From NCBI GenBank assembly GCA_041663185.1, contig JBAZQY010000002.1:10629-74628 (forward strand): DNA of 64,000 nt, in the 5' to 3' direction. The notes beneath the pieces were generated by a model. It had not been told where the DNA came from. It made no database searches and saw nothing but the letters and a program-made list of their open reading frames with translations. The first letter of the stretch is position 1. Each line of letters begins with the position of its first letter. The position numbers and the translations under genes are program-made. Below, piece by piece: positions 10,241 to 46,521 of the stretch. Origin of the DNA: Minisyncoccota bacterium (GTDB lineage: Bacteria; Patescibacteriota; Minisyncoccia; Phycocordibacterales; UBA9973).

Positions 10241-10780
10241 ATGAAAAAATTAGCAACAATATCATTGATTATATTTGGAATTGTAGTAACTGCTGTACTT
10301 TCGGCTGGTTTGGTTTTGTATCAAAACAAAAAAGATAATCAACTTGCTGGCAATCAAACGAGTAGTAAAGTGCTTGATACAATTAATCAACTTACTTCTT
10401 CTGGAAAGAATGTGGTTTTGGATATGGCAGAAATTACAAAACACAACAGACAGAATGATTGCTGGTATTTAATTAATAGCAAAGTTTATAATATCACAAG
10501 TTTTTTTGGATCACATCCAGGGGGAAATGATGTAATGACTTCTCTATGTGGAAAAGATGCGACTGCCGCTTATATGACCAAAGATTCAAACGCAACAAGT
10601 AATGGAAAAAGATCAGCTCACTCATCAGGAGCAGTTGCAATGTTGGCGAATTATTATCTAGGAGATTTTAATCAAATTATTGGTCAACAAAAAATTGCAG
10701 ACACCAATACTGTTGTAGCTCCCTCTGGTAATGGTGGTGAAGATGAAAATGAACAAGAAGATGAATATGAGGATGATTAA
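10241..10780 (+). CDS. membrane-anchored cytochrome b5-like haem-binding protein with acidic C-terminal tail
   Basis: EITKHNRQNDCWYLINSKVYNITSFFGSHPGGNDV is the cyt-b5 HPGG motif. Ends with GGEDENEQEDEYEDD. Confidence 0.7.
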   Translation: MKKLATISLIIFGIVVTAVLSAGLVLYQNKKDNQLAGNQTSSKVLDTINQLTSSGKNVVLDMAEITKHNRQNDCWYLINSKVYNITSFFGSHPGGNDVMTSLCGKDATAAYMTKDSNATSNGKRSAHSSGAVAMLANYYLGDFNQIIGQQKIADTNTVVAPSGNGGEDENEQEDEYEDD

Positions 10781-17991: not shown

Positions 17992-20751
17992 ATGCGTGAA
18001 AATAACTACCAAAAGTATATTCAATTTCTAAAAAAAGTTTTAATAAAACTTCGACCTAGATTTTCTTTCCACTACATTGCATATACAACTTTATTTACTC
18101 TTATTATTTTTTCTGTTATTCAATTAGTTTCCGCAACTACTCCAAACCCAGGGCATCCATGGAGTGAACTTGGTGATGGGGTTTTTGTCTTTACAAATAG
18201 CCAAACAGTCACTCCGTATACTTATACATTTCCAGCGGCAAACTCCACAGTTCTGACGACTAATGCGGCAGTGACCGTTGGACAAGGAGGAACTGGGCTT
18301 AATACCATTGCTTCAGGATCAATTTTGGCAGCTAATGCACTCGATACACTTTCAGCGATCACCTCAACAACTGGCACAAAAGTTTTGAAAAATACTGCGG
18401 GCACAATAAGTTGGGAGACAGATAATGGAATGGTTTACCCTGGTGCTGGCATTCCAAATTCCACCGGCAGTGCCTGGGGAACTTCATACTCAACTACAGG
18501 CACAGGCACAGTCGTTGCACTTGCAACTTCACCATCATTTACTACGCCATCACTTGGAGTAGCTTCTGGTACGTCAATTGATTTAGGTACAACAACTCTT
18601 CTCGGTTCTCGAGCTTTAACTGTTGATACTGGTGGAGTATTTAATATTAATATGGGAACGGCAGCAGGAGATGATTTTACTGTTGATACTGATTCACTAG
18701 TCGTAGAGGGGGATACGGGGAGAGTTGGAATTGGAATAAGTACTCCGGCATCTATCTTGGATATTCGCCCCAATACTGGATTAACAGATGTAGGTTTGAA
18801 TGTTCGCCAAACTTATACAGATGCTGGAAGCGGAAATTTTCAAACAGTCCTTAGAACTGAAGACCGAAATGGAACTGCTACTCTCTCTGTGGATTCAAGA
18901 GGACAGGATGGTGCTACTAAATTATCAACCGGAGGAGCTTGGTCAACTTTTGCAGCAGCAGATGCTATTGGTTATAGATATTTAACAAGTAGTAGTGGCG
19001 CTCAGGGAATGCAGGCCAAATATATATTAGTTGGCCCTACTTATTCAAGTGATATTTCAACTCTATCAGCAGGTGGAATATACGGAGGAATGATAGCAAG
19101 TAAAAATCTTTTACTGGAAAGTACTTCACATGCTACTAAAGGGTATGTCCTAATTCAATCAGGAGGAGGAAATACTGGTGTGGGAGGGATATCCACTCCT
19201 ACTGCTCGTCTTCATCTTCCTGCCGGTGCCTTCACTGTCTCGGCCGCACCTCTTAAATTTACTGCTGGCACAAACTTATTGACAGCTGAAGCCGGAGCGA
19301 TGGAATGGGATGGAACAAATCTTTTCATCACTCAAACAACAGGACCAACGAGAAAAAGAATTGCGTATGGCTCAGGAACTGCTAATGAAATTCCTTATTG
19401 GGTGGATTCAAGTACTCTTGGAACTTTGACAACTGCAACTTATCCATCCTTGACGGAACTTTCTTATGTCAAAGGTACAACAAGTGCAATTCAAACTCAA
19501 TTTACTGGCAAAGCAAATACAGCTCTTTCAAACTTGGCTTCAGTTGCGATAAATACATCTTTAGTTTCTGATACTAACAGCACAGATGACTTAGGAAGTT
19601 CATCAGTCTATTGGGCAAACACTTATACAAATACAATTTATGTGAACGCAACAAAAATTGGTGGAACAGCAGTTAGAGGCACAACCGAAGGTACAAATCA
19701 TTTAGATATTTTTGATGGCACGGCACCTGTGGGAACACTGACCAATGGAATATCACTTTATTCTACAGCCGGAGAACTTCGAGTTATGGATGCGGCCGGC
19801 AATGCGACGTTGTTATCGCCACACGAAAATATAAATAACTATTGGGTCTTTGATTCGACTAATCAAGGTACAGGAAAAAGTTTAGTTATAGATATGGAAT
19901 TGATGATGAAAAAATTAAATGAAACTTTTGGTTGGGATTTTGTTCATGAGACTCAAGATGGAATATCAATTGATACTTTAATGGCAGGTCTTGAAACAAA
20001 TATTGTTACTGATACATTTGAAGCCAATGGAGAAGTTACTTTCAATGGACTTGCATTCTTTAATGAAAATGTAAATTTTGCCAAAGGTATAAAATTCAGT
20101 GATGTTGCAGAATTTGAAGTTCCGCCACTTTTCAACAATGATACAGCCGGTTTTGCCATAATTAAAGAAGGGGCTAAATCAGTGCAAGTTTCTTTTGAAA
20201 ATCCATATTTAACGACACCGGTTGTCGCAACCAATATAACTTTTGAAAAAAATGAAGATATAGAATTTAATAGTGAAGACTTTTTCAATCAAGATGTTGA
20301 ATCGGTGGTGATGGATAAAGATCAAGAAGGTTTTACTATCGCCCTTAATCAACCGGCGCCAGTTGATATAAATTTTTCTTGGGTTGCCCTGGCAGTTAAA
20401 GATGTCAAAGTTTATGAAAGCGCGATTGAAGGTTTAGTGATTGAAGATATTGATACTGGTGGAGGAGATACGACAGAAGATACTATTAGTGATATAATTG
20501 AGGATACAACTGATGTGACTGATATCACAACTGATGATACTATTGTCGATACAACAGAAATTATCACGGAAGAAATTATTGAAGATAATACTGATATTAC
20601 AACCGAAGAAATTATCGAAGATAATACTGACACGACAACAGAAGAAATTATTGAAACAACAGAAGAAACAACTGATATTACTACTGATCAAATAGTTGAG
20701 ACAATTTCGAGTTCCGAAGCGACAATTTCTTCCGAAACATCAACTGAATAA
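17992..20751 (+). CDS. giant secreted Thr/Gly-rich surface protein with tail-fibre-like repeats and acidic C-terminal repeat tail
   Basis: Signal peptide/TM (FTLIIFSVIQLVSA). Repeated RVGIGISTPASILDI-type segments seen in fibre/tailspike proteins. Ends in a TEEIIEDNTD repeat. Start set at ATG 17992, behind TATAAT 17973..17978; the listed ORF uses TTG 17983. Confidence 0.6.
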   Translation: MRENNYQKYIQFLKKVLIKLRPRFSFHYIAYTTLFTLIIFSVIQLVSATTPNPGHPWSELGDGVFVFTNSQTVTPYTYTFPAANSTVLTTNAAVTVGQGGTGLNTIASGSILAANALDTLSAITSTTGTKVLKNTAGTISWETDNGMVYPGAGIPNSTGSAWGTSYSTTGTGTVVALATSPSFTTPSLGVASGTSIDLGTTTLLGSRALTVDTGGVFNINMGTAAGDDFTVDTDSLVVEGDTGRVGIGISTPASILDIRPNTGLTDVGLNVRQTYTDAGSGNFQTVLRTEDRNGTATLSVDSRGQDGATKLSTGGAWSTFAAADAIGYRYLTSSSGAQGMQAKYILVGPTYSSDISTLSAGGIYGGMIASKNLLLESTSHATKGYVLIQSGGGNTGVGGISTPTARLHLPAGAFTVSAAPLKFTAGTNLLTAEAGAMEWDGTNLFITQTTGPTRKRIAYGSGTANEIPYWVDSSTLGTLTTATYPSLTELSYVKGTTSAIQTQFTGKANTALSNLASVAINTSLVSDTNSTDDLGSSSVYWANTYTNTIYVNATKIGGTAVRGTTEGTNHLDIFDGTAPVGTLTNGISLYSTAGELRVMDAAGNATLLSPHENINNYWVFDSTNQGTGKSLVIDMELMMKKLNETFGWDFVHETQDGISIDTLMAGLETNIVTDTFEANGEVTFNGLAFFNENVNFAKGIKFSDVAEFEVPPLFNNDTAGFAIIKEGAKSVQVSFENPYLTTPVVATNITFEKNEDIEFNSEDFFNQDVESVVMDKDQEGFTIALNQPAPVDINFSWVALAVKDVKVYESAIEGLVIEDIDTGGGDTTEDTISDIIEDTTDVTDITTDDTIVDTTEIITEEIIEDNTDITTEEIIEDNTDTTTEEIIETTEETTDITTDQIVETISSSEATISSETSTE
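20569..20665 (+). repeat. 36-bp in-frame tandem repeat (about 2.3 copies, GAAGAAATTAT[T/C]GAAGATAATACTGA...) encoding TEEIIEDNTDxTT
   Basis: Units 20569..20604 and 20605..20640 are near-identical. The third copy is partial. Confidence 0.7.
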
Positions 20752-42349: not shown

Positions 42350-42655
42350 ATGTTAAAGATACGGTTACAAAGAATAGGGCGCAAGAATGATCCAGCTTTT
42401 CGGGTTGTTTTGACTGATTCAAAGAACTCAGCAAAGAGTGGAAGATTTAAAGAAATCTTGGGCTCATATAATTTAAAAAAAGGGGAAGTATTATTTAAGC
42501 AAGATAGAATCGCTCACTGGATGAGTCATGGAGCTCAAGTCTCAGATACTGTCCACAATTTCCTTGTCCACCAGAAATTGATTGAAGGAAAGAAGAAGAA
42601 CGTTCTATCAAAGAAATCACCAACCAAAGCTCGTAAAGAACTCAAAAAAGCATAA
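42350..42655 (+). CDS. rpsP: 30S ribosomal protein S16
   Basis: MLKIRLQRIGRKNDPAFRVVLTDSKNSAKSGRFKEILGSYN is a canonical S16 N-terminus. Confidence 0.9.
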   Translation: MLKIRLQRIGRKNDPAFRVVLTDSKNSAKSGRFKEILGSYNLKKGEVLFKQDRIAHWMSHGAQVSDTVHNFLVHQKLIEGKKKNVLSKKSPTKARKELKKA

Positions 42656-42664
42656 AACTAAAGT

Positions 42665-42684
42665 CCCCGAAAGGGGATTTTTTG
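42665..42684 (+). terminator. rho-independent terminator after rpsP
   Basis: TCCCC-gaaa-GGGGA followed by TTTTTT. Confidence 0.6.
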
Positions 42685-42776
42685 AGCTTGCTTTTTTCTG
42701 TATATATGATATAATATAGAAGAATACCGCGGATGCCGAAAAGCGATAACAGAGTAGGCTCTTTTAAAACTTTATT

Positions 42777-43520
42777 ATGATGATAACTGAAAAGATTACA
42801 TCAGACCCAATGACCGAAGGTCAACTTAAAGCAATCAAGCGTTTGCTTGAAGATGGTATTAATTTATTTAATTCCACCGACCTCGTAGCCCTTGGTTTTA
42901 CCAAGGATGAATCGCAGGAAATTCTTAAAAAAGGAAATCTGATTCAGAACGAAACGAAAGTGTTCCTGACAGCGTTACTAAAAAAGTATGCAATCATCGA
43001 CAAACGTTTTGGTGTTCCTATTGAATTCAATCTAACGGTTCCTGCCGACTACAATCACGACAAGCAAATTGACACTTCAGCCCAAAAAGCAAAAGGTGAA
43101 AAGACCACGTATTACTACAACGATGATCTTAACAGTAAGAATTTTACAAAAGCAACCAGGAAACTGGAGCCGGGCAAAACATACAACGTAAAAATCATCC
43201 CGATTCTTGAAGGGGTAACGAGCGAAGACTGTCTGACAATATTGAGCAGATACAATGCTATATTGGTAGGCGGGCAGGGTGCAACCTTAGTGTATGATGT
43301 CGCTAAAGATAAACTTCCGAAAGGTAAATGGGCAGTTTCTTTTGATGAAAAGAAGGCTCTCTGGAAAGACGCTGGCGGCTACCGCAGGGTGCCTGGCGTG
43401 ATTGCCCACTCGGATGGTGACTTCAAGTTCGGCCTTGGCTACTTCGAGGGTGACTGGGATGGTGACGGCGTTCTGCTTTGCTTCTGCGACGTGCCTGCTT
43501 CCGAGCAGGCTAGCACTTAG
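42777..43520 (+). CDS. DGR target protein (no signal peptide) carrying the variable repeat at its C-terminus
   Basis: ORF whose last ~120 nt are the VR copy of the downstream TR. C-terminus ...GYRRVPGVIAHSDGDFKFGLGYFEGDWDGDGVLLCFCD. Confidence 0.6.
   Translation: MMITEKITSDPMTEGQLKAIKRLLEDGINLFNSTDLVALGFTKDESQEILKKGNLIQNETKVFLTALLKKYAIIDKRFGVPIEFNLTVPADYNHDKQIDTSAQKAKGEKTTYYYNDDLNSKNFTKATRKLEPGKTYNVKIIPILEGVTSEDCLTILSRYNAILVGGQGATLVYDVAKDKLPKGKWAVSFDEKKALWKDAGGYRRVPGVIAHSDGDFKFGLGYFEGDWDGDGVLLCFCDVPASEQAST
43369..43490 (+). repeat. DGR variable repeat (VR), 122 bp
   Basis: Hand-aligned to 43840..43961: 106/122 identical. All 16 mismatches are at TR adenines. Confidence 0.8.
43493..43510 (+). 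promoter_or_regulatory. GC-rich hairpin (GCCTGCT-tccg-AGCAGGC) immediately 3' of VR, absent after TR; candidate DGR homing hairpin / IMH-associated structure
   Basis: Read directly. 7-bp stem, 4-nt loop, starts 3 nt after the VR/TR homology ends. Confidence 0.45.
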
Positions 43521-43839
43521 TCGCTTTGTTCCTTAAACACATTGGGTCCTTAGACCCTTGATTCTTGTGCTCTTACTTTGTAAGAGCACTTTTTTTATAT
43601 ATAATTAAAAAAGGAAAAAGATTTGACGTGCGGTTACGACTTCACGTTGTCAATTTCTCGTAAAAAGAATTAGCGAGGAATTGCTCGGGTATTCCTTAGC
43701 AGTGAGAGCTACTTTTTATGAAAAAACAAAATAAGTCGGTGCAATATGTCGGTGAGTTTTTAAGACTCAAAATAAAATACAGAGATTGACTGGTGTTGGT
43801 CTCGGTGGAATAGATGGTGTGTTGTACATTGCTTTGCTT

Positions 43840-43961
43840 ACGCTGACGGCAACCACAGGGTGCCTAACGTGAATGCCAACTCGGATGGTGACTTCAAGTT
43901 CAACCTTGGCAACTTCGAGAATGACTGGAATGATGACAACGTTCTGCTTTGCTTCTGCGAC
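43840..43961 (+). repeat. DGR template repeat (TR), 122 bp, rich in AAC/AAT codons in the VR frame
   Basis: See VR. Reads in frame as DGNHRVPNVNANSDGDFKFNLGNFENDWNDDNVLLCFCD. Confidence 0.8.
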
Positions 43962-43978
43962 TCATATCGTTTCTCCCG

Positions 43979-44326
43979 CTACTTGTTAGTGGGAGTTTTA
44001 TCTTGCAAACTTTTCTTCCATCCACCAAGCATCCGACCGACTTCGTCTAATTGAAGAATAATGTTGCCATAGGTAGCGTGGTCAAGCACTTTGTGTTCCC
44101 ACCCAATTTGTAAAAAGAATTTCAATAAATCGGATTTGCCAATAGCTTGAGATACAAGAGATAATTTTTCAAATTTATCACAGGCAAAAGTTGCTCTGAA
44201 TATGAGTTCAAGTAAAGATAAAAAAATATCATCAATTTTAATACCAATAGTATACCTATCAACCTTAGAAATATTTTCTAGATATTTATGCCAAATCTTA
44301 TAAGATTCTTTAGTACGCACAAGCAC
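43979..44326 (-). CDS. avd: Avd-like accessory protein (four-helix-bundle / 23S rRNA intervening-sequence protein family)
   Basis: 115-aa helical ORF (GTG start) between TR and RT with ...ATFACDKFEKLSLVSQAIGKSDLLKFFLQIGWE... resembling TIGR02436-type four-helix-bundle proteins, to which DGR Avd belongs. Confidence 0.5.
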   Translation of the reverse strand: MLVRTKESYKIWHKYLENISKVDRYTIGIKIDDIFLSLLELIFRATFACDKFEKLSLVSQAIGKSDLLKFFLQIGWEHKVLDHATYGNIILQLDEVGRMLGGWKKSLQDKTPTNK

Positions 44327-44341
44327 AAGCGGTGCTTGTGC

Positions 44342-44351
44342 GGGGGGGGGG
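44342..44351. repeat. G10 homopolymer in the divergent avd/RT intergenic region, preceded by hairpin GCACAAGC-ggt-GCTTGTGC (44323..44341)
   Basis: Read directly. Very unusual in this AT-rich context. Confidence 0.6.
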
Positions 44352-44375
44352 TAGTAGATTTATAGTTCTATTATT

Positions 44376-45350
44376 ATGTTTGTTCATAAATATAACAATA
44401 TCATATCAATCGAAAATCTCCTTATGACTTGGGAGCGTTTTCTTCGTGGAAAACGCAAAAAGAAAGATGTGATAATCTTTCAATCAAAACTTTCTGATAA
44501 TATAAACGATTTATATAATCTTCTTCAAACAAGAACATATATTCATGGCGAGTACTCAGCCTTTAATGTTTCAGACCCAAAACCGAGGAATATTCACAAG
44601 GCGACAGTTCGCGATAGGCTTTTACACCATTTGATTTACAAAGAATTATATCCGTATTTTGATACTAGATTTATTTATGATTCGTACTCGTGTAGAAAAA
44701 ATAAAGGAACACACAAAGCACTAGACCGATTTCGATTTTTTGCAAGGAAAGTTTCAAAAAATAATACCAGAACTTGCTATGTATTAAAAGGAGACATAAA
44801 AAAGTTTTTTGCAAGCATTAATCATGATGTTTTACGCTCAATTCTCGGACGGCATATTGAAAACAAAGAGATACTCTGGTTAATCAACCAGGTCATTAAA
44901 AGTTTTCATACAACAAATGAAGGTATCGGCTTACCACTCGGAAATCTAACCTCTCAACTTTTAGTAAATATATATATGCATGAATTTGATATGTTTGTAA
45001 AACAGGAACTTCGAGTGAAATATTATATTCGTTATGCTGACGACTTTGCAATTTTTTCAGACAGTAATAAATATCTGGAAGAATTGCTTCCTAAGATGGA
45101 AATATTTTTGAATGAAAAAATGAAATTGAAACTTCACGAAAACAAAGTGTATATCAAAACTTATGCTTCGGGAGTAGATTTTTTAGGCTGGATTCATTTT
45201 CCATATCATCGACAAATACGAACAAGTACAAAAAGAAAAATAATCAGAAAATTGAAAGGTTATCCCAAACCAGAAACGATAAACTCATATCATGGATTAT
45301 TAGGGCATGGAAATACTTATAAACTTAGGAAAAAGGTGAAAATTAATTAA
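44376..45350 (+). CDS. DGR-type reverse transcriptase (no maturase/endonuclease domain)
   Basis: RT motifs 1-7 including IRYADDFAIF (YxDD). Motif 4 GLPLGNLTSQ is the GxxxSQ hallmark of DGR RTs. 324 aa. Confidence 0.8.
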   Translation: MFVHKYNNIISIENLLMTWERFLRGKRKKKDVIIFQSKLSDNINDLYNLLQTRTYIHGEYSAFNVSDPKPRNIHKATVRDRLLHHLIYKELYPYFDTRFIYDSYSCRKNKGTHKALDRFRFFARKVSKNNTRTCYVLKGDIKKFFASINHDVLRSILGRHIENKEILWLINQVIKSFHTTNEGIGLPLGNLTSQLLVNIYMHEFDMFVKQELRVKYYIRYADDFAIFSDSNKYLEELLPKMEIFLNEKMKLKLHENKVYIKTYASGVDFLGWIHFPYHRQIRTSTKRKIIRKLKGYPKPETINSYHGLLGHGNTYKLRKKVKIN

Positions 45351-45457
45351 TGGAATTTTATTATTGCATACTGAAATATAAATATGTTATAATATAAATA
45401 GAGCAGTCGTAGTCGGTACACTGCACAGATTTTAAGAGAATAATACTAAAAGATAAT

Positions 45458-45787
45458 ATGGCAGACGATAAAGCATTTTTAGAGTATATTGTAAAAGCAT
45501 TGGTTGATTATCCAGACGATGTGAAAATCGACCGCACAGTCGACGAGATGGGAGTACTCATAACTATGACCGTTAATGGTGCAGATATGGGTAAAATTAT
45601 TGGTCGTCAGGGAAACACAGCAAAGGCAATCCGAACACTCTTGCGAGTTATTGGTATGAAGAATAATGCTCGAGTTAACCTAAAGATTAACGAACCAGAA
45701 GGTGGAAAAGTAGAGGCTCCTTCAGAAAATGGAGAATCAGCATCCAAATCAGTGGACTCAGCCCTCGAAGACTTAAAGGGAATATAA
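45458..45787 (+). CDS. khpA: KH-domain RNA-binding protein (KhpA/YlqC-like, UPF0109)
   Basis: YIVKALVDYPDDVKID...MGKIIGRQGNTAKAIRTLLRVIG is a KH GxxG loop. Position between rpsP and trmD matches the conserved operon. Confidence 0.7.
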   Translation: MADDKAFLEYIVKALVDYPDDVKIDRTVDEMGVLITMTVNGADMGKIIGRQGNTAKAIRTLLRVIGMKNNARVNLKINEPEGGKVEAPSENGESASKSVDSALEDLKGI

Positions 45788-45794
45788 TTGAAAT

Positions 45795-45834
45795 AAAGAA
45801 AACGACCTCTACTGAGGTCGTTTTCTTTATTTTA
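45795..45834 (+). terminator. strong hairpin terminator after khpA
   Basis: AAAGAAAACGACCTC-tact-GAGGTCGTTTTCTTT 15-bp perfect stem, then ATTTTAT. Confidence 0.55.
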
Positions 45835-45849
45835 TGGTATAGTAGTTTT

Positions 45850-46521
45850 ATGAATTTCTATGTCATTACACTTTTTCCAGAAATGTTTAACTCATATTTA
45901 AATGAGTCGATTTTGGGACGGGCTATCAAAAACAAAAAGATAAAAATAACCTTTGTAAATCCTCGACAATTTGTCACTGGTAAATACAAGAAGGTCTGGC
46001 CAGACGGAAATATTTCAGCACAAGTAGATGACCGTCCATATGCTGGTGGACCTGGAATGGTCATGAGAGCTGAACCGATCATTAAAGCAGTGGAATCTAT
46101 AACAAAAAAAAATAAAAGCAAAAAGTTTTTGGTTATTAATTTTATTCCAACTGCTCCCAAATTTGATACTAAGATGGCTAAAAATATCGGAGTTAAGTAC
46201 ACCGATGTTATTATGATTTGTGGTAGATATGAAGGGATAGATGCACGAGTAGATAAAATCCTGAAAACAAAAAAAATTTCAATAGGGGATTATGTTCTAA
46301 CTGGCGGAGAAATACCGGCGATGGTTTTAATTGATTCCATCTCTCGTCAAGTAGAAGGAGTATTAGGAAATTTTGATTCTCGTGAAGAAGAAAGAGTTTC
46401 TTCAAGCGAAGTCTACACCCGCCCAGAAATCATAGAGCATAAAGGTAAAAAGTATAAAGTCCCCAAAGTCTTACTTGGAGGAGATCATAAAAAAATAGAA
46501 AATTGGAAAAAGAGTAAGTAG
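45850..46521 (+). CDS. trmD: tRNA (guanine37-N1)-methyltransferase
   Basis: MNFYVITLFPEMF, ICGRYEGIDARV and SIGDYVLTGGEIPAMVLIDSISR SPOUT knot motifs. Confidence 0.9.
   Translation: MNFYVITLFPEMFNSYLNESILGRAIKNKKIKITFVNPRQFVTGKYKKVWPDGNISAQVDDRPYAGGPGMVMRAEPIIKAVESITKKNKSKKFLVINFIPTAPKFDTKMAKNIGVKYTDVIMICGRYEGIDARVDKILKTKKISIGDYVLTGGEIPAMVLIDSISRQVEGVLGNFDSREEERVSSSEVYTRPEIIEHKGKKYKVPKVLLGGDHKKIENWKKSK

Follow-up and report, generated by a model that had tools for sequence, protein, structure and literature searches.

A conserved, covarying RNA domain lies upstream of the template repeat in diversity-generating retroelements of Patescibacteria

Introduction

In diversity-generating retroelements (DGRs), mutagenic retrohoming turns the adenines of a template repeat (TR) into random bases in a variable repeat (VR) of a target gene. 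The closest described relatives of the element analyzed here are the DGRs of the candidate phyla radiation (CPR). According to Wu et al. 2018 (NAR 46:11, PMC5758913), 90% of these have architecture B3, written TR-(avd)-RT, with parentheses denoting the reverse strand and RT the reverse transcriptase gene; most of their VRs were left without a fold class (UVR1-6), and some of the cassettes enclose ribosomal protein genes. Roux et al. 2021 (Nat Commun 12:3076, PMC8144416) described DGR clade 2 as a cellular clade confined to Patescibacteria, with targets that typically lack transmembrane segments, signal peptides and recognizable domains. Here we analyze a DGR of this kind in a 64,000-nucleotide stretch, hereafter the window, of a Minisyncoccota bacterium (GenBank assembly GCA_041663185.1, contig JBAZQY010000002.1, forward-strand positions 10,629 to 74,628), and describe a conserved structured RNA domain immediately 5' of its TR.

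The mechanistic reference is the DGR of Bordetella phage BPP-1 (mtd-avd-TR-brt). The cryo-electron microscopy (cryo-EM) paper on its RT (bRT) describes a 140-nt spacer on the 3' side of TR, which wraps around the RT and contributes the adenosine used for priming. Structured RNAs found beside DGR TRs, and presumed to serve the RT, include Rfam RT-10, which is the BPP-1 spacer RNA, and the RT-1 to RT-19 motifs (Weinberg et al. 2017, PMC5737381), which are included in Rfam 15. Short hairpins also recur. Stem-loops just downstream of TR, mostly of 9 bp and bound by Avd, have been described for 207 DGRs, CPR members among them (bioRxiv 10.1101/2023.10.23.563531), and a GC-rich inverted repeat follows the initiation of mutagenic homing (IMH) sequence in the Bordetella and Legionella DGRs (PMC5758913).

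We conclude with high confidence that the window carries a complete chromosomal DGR of a CPR/Patescibacteria lineage, ordered target, TR, avd on the reverse strand and RT, and situated between the rpsP and KH-protein/trmD genes of a Candidatus Paceibacterota genome. More tentatively, we propose that the template RNA of CPR B3 DGRs may be rearranged: a domain of ~230 nt and seven helices 5' of TR would act as the RT-Avd scaffold and supply or position the primer, leaving only a terminal stem-loop on the 3' side. The CPR DGR papers covered here do not mention this conserved domain.

Results

An adenine-specific repeat pair

A repeat search found a single long direct repeat, an ungapped pair of 122 nt (87% identical) with one copy at the 3' end of the target gene and the other downstream of it (Table 1). 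Tabulated pairwise, the two copies agree at 106 positions and differ at 16. TR has an A at every one of the 16 (12 A/G, 3 A/T, 1 A/C), and the number of non-adenine mismatches is zero; given 31 A in the TR, the hypergeometric probability of this outcome is 7e-12. All mismatches occupy position 1 or 2 of a target codon. They affect 12 codons, nine of which are AAC or AAT in TR. The positions of the repeats, their identity, the preference for AAC/AAT codons and the reading of this pattern as the mark of mutagenic retrohoming had all been put forward in a first-pass annotation of the DNA; the alignment confirms the first three and supports the last.

Similarity between the copies ends sharply at both flanks. 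The final 22 nt of VR match those of TR and the flanks diverge thereafter, a candidate IMH/IMH* region; TR and VR often end in different codons in the relatives. No further VR-like copy occurs in the window on either strand. The theoretical repertoire of the TR is ~1.6e18 protein variants over 21 codons, and a stop can be reached from one codon (AAG) only.

Scanning one genome per species, we collected 48 loci, essentially all from metagenome-assembled genomes (MAGs) of Patescibacteria (Nomurabacteria, Paceibacterota, Minisyncoccia, Zambryskibacteria and Jorgensenbacteria). About 24 of the 48 contain the full cassette with the same order and strands: target(+), TR(+), avd(-), RT(+). Mismatches fall overwhelmingly on TR adenines in ~25 related loci, for example 16/16 in L001, 18/18 in L002, 20/20 in L018 and 15/15 in L035. 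Two loci, L040 and L041, possess a second VR within a second target downstream of the RT gene, and both VRs differ adenine-specifically from the single TR.

A covarying RNA domain between target and TR

The spacer from the target stop codon to TR is conserved at the nucleotide level far above the expectation from proteins that are 45-60% identical (22 loci aligned). RNAalifold, applied to positions 43612-43845 and their counterparts in 22 genomes, returned 55 base pairs in seven helices (Table 1), and 43 of the 55 show compensatory double changes. In these genomes 95.9% of the cells assigned to pairs are paired, compared with 38-50% after the partners are slid by 1-3 columns. None of 500 shuffles reached the observed values.

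Metagenomes provided independent copies. A degenerate 23-base pattern drawn from the unpaired conserved motifs (GAAAAAA...AGTCGGT...TAAAATWCA) retrieved 105 metagenome stretches, of which 77 have the same cassette order of target, TR, avd(-), RT(+). We built a covariance model, R1, from the 22 genomes and ran it on the first 99 of the 105 stretches, obtaining 73 independent full-length matches of 139-226 bits; all 73 lie inside DGR cassettes of the same order. In these copies pairing stands at 96.7% versus 39-45% for slid partners, and 43 of the 55 pairs are again compensatory. Within the window, R1 recognizes one site only, which has the top score of all copies (234.7 bits) and is itself a training sequence of the model. 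As a structure, the 5' domain is robust.

The domain appears to represent an undescribed RNA family, with ~95 copies and no Rfam match. Scanning 42600-45500 against Rfam at E values up to 1 gave no match except DUF805b upstream of the target, and 11 related loci scanned whole had no match at gathering thresholds. Between TR and the RT gene, where a Bordetella-type spacer of the RT-10 family would lie, Rfam likewise found nothing.

Little RNA constraint downstream of TR

On the 3' side of TR, one hairpin with a U-tract begins 11 nt after the repeat and overlaps the stop codon of avd on the opposite strand. Alignments of 22 genome and 36 metagenome loci show it to be conserved, with some covariation. 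By analogy with the Avd-binding stem-loops described for other DGRs, we regard it as a candidate Avd-binding stem-loop. The avd gene that follows keeps its position and strand in ~24 genome loci and ~70 metagenome loci. In 73 distinct avd genes, entropy at third codon positions is near maximal along the gene, except at codons 110-112 (0.18-0.29 bits), which lie opposite the 3' arm and U-tract of the TR-proximal hairpin. We therefore rejected the idea that a spacer-like RNA is hidden antisense in avd. A candidate GGTGG/CCACC pairing with antisense avd was also dropped, as the aligned flanks show no covariation for it.

At the other end of the putative template transcript, a promoter-like site overlaps the terminator-like hairpin of the target. 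This hairpin is conserved with covariation (alignment A3), and the -10 box that follows it, TATA[AC]T, is near-invariant in the 22 loci (43600-43605 in the window).

Table 1. Features of the DGR cassette, in coordinates of the window.
Feature	Position	Strand	Description
Target gene (variable protein)	42777-43520	+	247 aa; N-terminal helical region and predicted C-terminal C-type-lectin-like domain
Variable repeat (VR)	43369-43490	+	target codons 198-238; 106/122 identity to TR
Hairpin after VR	43493-43510	+	7-bp stem GCCTGCT/AGCAGGC, loop TCCG; sequence reading and folding
Eight-CTT array (CTTAG/CTTTG/CTTAA...)	43516-43574	+	from target stop codon into terminator
Terminator-like hairpin and T-run ending target transcript	43567-43596	+	terminator scan: 10-bp stem, then TTTTTTT
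Promoter-like site for template RNA, TTGTAA-16-TATAAT	43578-43605	+	promoter scan, 10/12 matches
Conserved structured RNA domain	43612-43839	+	seven helices, ~230 nt; covariation, covariance model R1
Helix P1	43626-43635/43638-43647	+	RNA domain
Helix P2	43658-43666/43713-43721	+	RNA domain
Helix P2a	43673-43674/43708-43709	+	RNA domain
Helix P3	43680-43690/43693-43703	+	RNA domain
Helix P4	43739-43750/43816-43827	+	RNA domain, encloses P5 and P6
Helix P5	43753-43757/43765-43769	+	RNA domain, inside P4
Helix P6	43782-43790/43795-43803	+	RNA domain, inside P4
Template repeat (TR)	43840-43961	+	31 adenines; 9 in-frame AAY codons
Terminator-like hairpin and U-tract, candidate Avd-binding stem-loop	43973-44003	+	9 bp (CTCCCGCTA/TAGTGGGAG); terminator scan
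avd (accessory variability determinant)	43979-44326	-	115 aa; Pfam bAvd 45.0 bits
Hairpin including avd GTG start, then G10 tract	44317-44351	.	10 bp; in the 49-nt divergent avd/RT intergenic region
DGR reverse transcriptase	44376-45350	+	324 aa; Pfam RVT_1 91.5 bits; no maturase or endonuclease domain

The reverse transcriptase

The RT displays the motifs GLPLGNLTSQ and YADD, which are of the [I/L]GxxxSQ and YxDD types. Its best solved relative is chain A of 8ub7 (133 bits, E 1.5e-37), and the two align end to end, residues 8-299 of 324 with 11-290 of 328. In 8ub7, IGSLTSQ occupies 181-187 and YMDD contains D215/D216. This numbering is that of the residues named in the bRT cryo-EM paper, and 8ub7 is therefore the Bordetella phage DGR RT. 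Counterparts of bRT K29, F66, R74, I76, D138, G182, Q187 and D215/D216 are kept in the window RT, which has Leu at the position of I181. The best group II RT among solved structures reaches 81 bits, against 133 for 8ub7.

The top NCBIfam score is to the group II RT/maturase model TIGR04416 (145.8 bits, far below its cutoff of 300); retron St85 (62, cutoff 235) and the defense RT models Drt3a (78, cutoff 200), Drt2 (57, cutoff 390) and Drt5 (28, cutoff 550) likewise stay far below their cutoffs. The RT carries no C-terminal extension, and Rfam scans found no group II intron in the region and no retron RNA family. Its sequence thus supports placement in the DGR clade. The first-pass annotation had described an RT with these two motifs and no maturase or endonuclease domain and had called for comparison with group II and retron models; its description agrees with the ORF and the 8ub7 alignment, and the comparison leaves the DGR RT as the best structural match.

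The target protein

The largest mean Kyte-Doolittle value over 19 residues is 1.14 in the target and at most 1.56 in 50 homologues. There is no hydrophobic segment, in agreement with the first-pass annotation, which saw neither a signal peptide nor a transmembrane helix. The sequence fits a non-membrane protein, which may be cytoplasmic. An identical protein in NCBI is a hypothetical protein of a Candidatus Paceibacterota MAG. A word-indexed search returned 109 homologues, all of ~220-250 aa, the named ones from Nomurabacteria or Pacebacteria. An exhaustive profile search returned 1,299 representatives of the family at 50% identity (984 at E <=1e-10), with a conserved core at profile positions ~55-223.

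Neither the target nor 50 homologues scanned one by one matched Pfam or NCBIfam. Sequence and profile searches of the PDB gave nothing meaningful, and Foldseek returned no significant match in the PDB or BFVD. The predicted structure places the VR of the target in a C-type-lectin (CLec)-like fold. In 50 homologues, the VR columns are hypervariable on a conserved scaffold, RVPxV..SDGDF.F.LG.F..W....LLCFCD. The earlier remark that this C-terminus does not resemble a CLec scaffold is thus correct for the sequence and not for the predicted fold. The known company of such a fold would be the solved DGR variable proteins Mtd, TvpA, archaeal AvpA and Thermus TaqVP, and the wider CLec/FGE fold.

Small elements near VR and avd

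Three nucleotides downstream of VR, within the last target codons, a short hairpin occurs that is also present in L001; other loci have small hairpins near VR in different positions. By analogy with the inverted repeats that follow the IMH in Bordetella and Legionella, it is a candidate target-recognition hairpin. The target stop codon opens an array of eight CTT triplets at spacings of 8, 8, 9, 8, 8, 7 and 8 nt. Three tandem NNNCTTRG units follow the stop codon in most relatives (L004, L015 and L036 among them), including targets with no adjacent DGR. The array could be a target-recognition or RNA-binding array.

In the divergent avd/RT intergenic region, 41 related loci likewise have the hairpin followed by a G tract, whose length is 6-14 (mode 10-11). 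We discarded a role for the tract as a phase-variation switch, since near-identical copies show no length differences. In L018 (7500-7690), this region contains an N run and then a long C/G-rich stretch after the G tract, probably reflecting an assembly problem at the homopolymer.

An Rfam DUF805b motif (RF02914) lies at 42726-42760 (+), scoring 43.5 bits (gathering score 35.6; E 4.7e-9 over the whole window). The site is in the 5' untranslated region of the target, between a promoter-like site at 42682-42710 and the ATG. It is missing upstream of the target homologues in L001 and other loci, and we rejected it as a family-wide target leader. The window also matches SNORA5, a eukaryotic H/ACA small nucleolar RNA, at 19803-19897 (+) with 32.4 bits (gathering score 30, E 0.006); this match in a bacterial sequence is almost certainly spurious.

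Genomic context and other target loci

The cassette sits inside a conserved run of rpsP, KH-domain protein and trmD genes (42350-46521). Its neighborhood is not conserved among relatives: the rpsP/KH/trmD context is common only to L018, where the DGR follows trmD, and the other loci have unrelated neighbors.

Several loci have two targets of the same family. The second lies downstream of the RT in L040, L041, L119 and L132, and both are upstream in L061 and L128. In ~20 genomes, a target homologue stands alone, TR, avd and RT all being absent within 6 kb of it (L006, L008, L010, L012, L014, L016, L019, L028-L030, L034, L037-L039, L042, L043 and L045-L048). These solo homologues may be remote targets or undiversified paralogues. 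We set aside L045 as a second, remote target; its VR and the VR of L035, a locus of the same MAG, are identical, only ~1 kb is shared, and it is probably an assembly duplicate.

At L154:3540-4110 (GCA_964743205.1, protein P0017), the target ORF contains a VR/TR hybrid, VR-like at its 5' side and full of AAC codons at its 3' side. It runs directly into the TR-3' hairpin and antisense avd, with no spacer, 5' RNA domain or separate TR, and a transposase gene follows the RT. This arrangement is either an assembler's collapse of the repeats or a genuine recombination between VR and TR, which would inactivate the element.

Discussion

Comparison with known DGRs

With its core order of TR, reverse-strand avd and RT in a CPR host, the window element has architecture B3. 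It resembles the CPR DGRs of B3 and clade 2 in host group, in gene order with an inverted avd between TR and RT, and in being chromosomal rather than phage-borne. It also shares with them a small target that has no transmembrane segment, signal peptide or recognizable domain, one C-terminal VR, AAY codons in TR, and, in some of its relatives, two targets. The window element is not different in kind. The first-pass annotation was right that avd is oriented opposite to target and RT, as the ORF strands show. This inversion, the signal-less target and the unrecognizable VR domain, which it had flagged, are nonetheless not exceptional, because each is a known hallmark of the CPR class. DGRs have already been catalogued in the thousands, and as a DGR the cassette is one more example.

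With the BPP-1 DGR, the element has in common the adenine-specific signature, full-length RT homology with active-site and fingertip residues, an Avd protein, a target of CLec fold (here predicted) with a C-terminal VR, and a stem-loop directly after TR. It departs from BPP-1 in having an inverted avd on the 3' side of TR, in being cellular and in having a target other than a phage tail fiber. The ~140-nt structured spacer (Sp) downstream of the BPP-1 TR has no detectable counterpart in the window, which has the ~230-nt domain upstream instead. Like RT-10 and the RT-1 to RT-19 motifs, this domain is a structured RNA beside a DGR TR; unlike RT-10, it is on the opposite side of TR, and it has no Rfam match.

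A model for the template RNA

By homology with the Bordetella system, we can sketch how the cassette would work. Its own promoter, with the -10 box at 43600-43605, would produce a dedicated non-coding RNA of ~385 nt ending at the hairpin and U-tract near position 44000. From 5' to 3', this template RNA would consist of the seven-helix domain (~230 nt), TR (122 nt) and a stem-loop. The RT, with an Avd pentamer, would reverse-transcribe TR and misincorporate opposite its 31 adenines, and the cDNA would replace VR (43369-43490) at the 3' end of the target gene. Up to 21 codons would be recoded, giving ~1e18 possible proteins that differ on the ligand-binding face of a small protein of predicted CLec fold with no secretion signal. 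We infer this mechanism from the Bordetella phage system, and with it the transcript ends, the priming site, and the cellular location and ligand of the target. The 5' domain may be the RT-Avd scaffold, a functional counterpart of the Bordetella 3' spacer RNA. A dedicated ~385-nt RNA with its large structured part upstream of the template is the most economical model.

Several results weigh against this account of the element. The transcript boundaries are consensus-pattern predictions only. We found no convincing counterparts of the Bordetella template:primer or 'cPRT stop' duplexes, only short candidates that do not covary. The minus-strand 115-aa ORF, which the first-pass annotation took for Avd, is recognized as such by Pfam bAvd (45.0 bits, gathering threshold 40), yet it scores 52.5 bits on NCBIfam DivGenRetAVD, under the equivalog cutoff of 80, and sequence and profile searches of the PDB gave no match to it and nothing meaningful, respectively. 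No direct sign of ongoing diversification was seen: the 90% cluster of the target consists of start-codon variants only, whose VRs are all identical, and a search of metagenomes for VR variants, using the TR pattern with A replaced by N, had 0 matches.

These last results would suit a decayed relic, whose TR/VR pattern records past activity and which no longer diversifies. Population heterogeneity is not demonstrable, and the L154 cassette appears to have collapsed into a VR/TR hybrid. An inactivated element would, however, accumulate non-adenine differences between TR and VR, and there are none; the RT and Avd ORFs are intact with conserved catalytic residues, and the RNA domain is the top-scoring copy of its family, although as a training sequence. 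A relic is therefore improbable. The lack of non-adenine differences, the intact ORFs and the well-preserved RNA argue, as sequence features, for a functional element, and we infer that it is currently active. Supporting as they do the identity of the cassette as a DGR, the adenine-only mismatches (P 7e-12, recurring in ~25 genomes) also bear on the notion of an ordinary segmental duplication beside an unrelated group II intron, retron or defense RT. Such an origin could appeal to the best NCBIfam match of the RT, the group II RT/maturase model, at 145.8 bits. That score is far under the cutoff of 300, and the retron and defense RT models miss theirs by more. Rfam detects no group II intron RNA in the region, and the RT, which lacks a maturase or endonuclease extension, aligns with bRT over its full length. 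We consider this origin highly improbable.

The alternative that bears most directly on the RNA domain is that it works outside reverse transcription, as a separate regulatory element (a riboswitch-like leader, or a small RNA acting on the expression of TR or target) or as a DNA-level site. Pairing of the domain with the TR ends or the 3' region, or between the TR flanks, is not demonstrable, and the domain, whose connection to the RT is putative, matches no known RT-associated Rfam motif. Base-pair covariation, on the other hand, speaks for a function at the RNA level. The domain always lies between the -10 box and TR with no terminator in between, and all 73 covariance-model matches belong to DGR cassettes of the same order. 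Downstream of TR, where the spacer usually lies, one hairpin is the only sign of RNA constraint, and the Bordetella RT depends on, and is wrapped by, RNA that flanks TR. We consider a role outside reverse transcription unlikely.

Implications

For the protein, the predicted structure assigns the C-type-lectin fold to a very large family of hypothetical targets (~1,300 clusters at 50% identity), where earlier surveys had left the fold of CPR variable repeats open. For the RNA, an upstream covarying domain combined with the lack of downstream RNA constraint gives a testable model of how B3 template RNAs are organized, and the covariance model can be used to find further elements of this type. 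If the proposed role of the 5' domain is true, the largest cellular lineage of DGRs would have a different cis-priming geometry, with the primer coming from the other side of the template. The model is relevant for understanding, and possibly for engineering, reverse transcription in DGRs other than that of Bordetella, so far the single paradigm.

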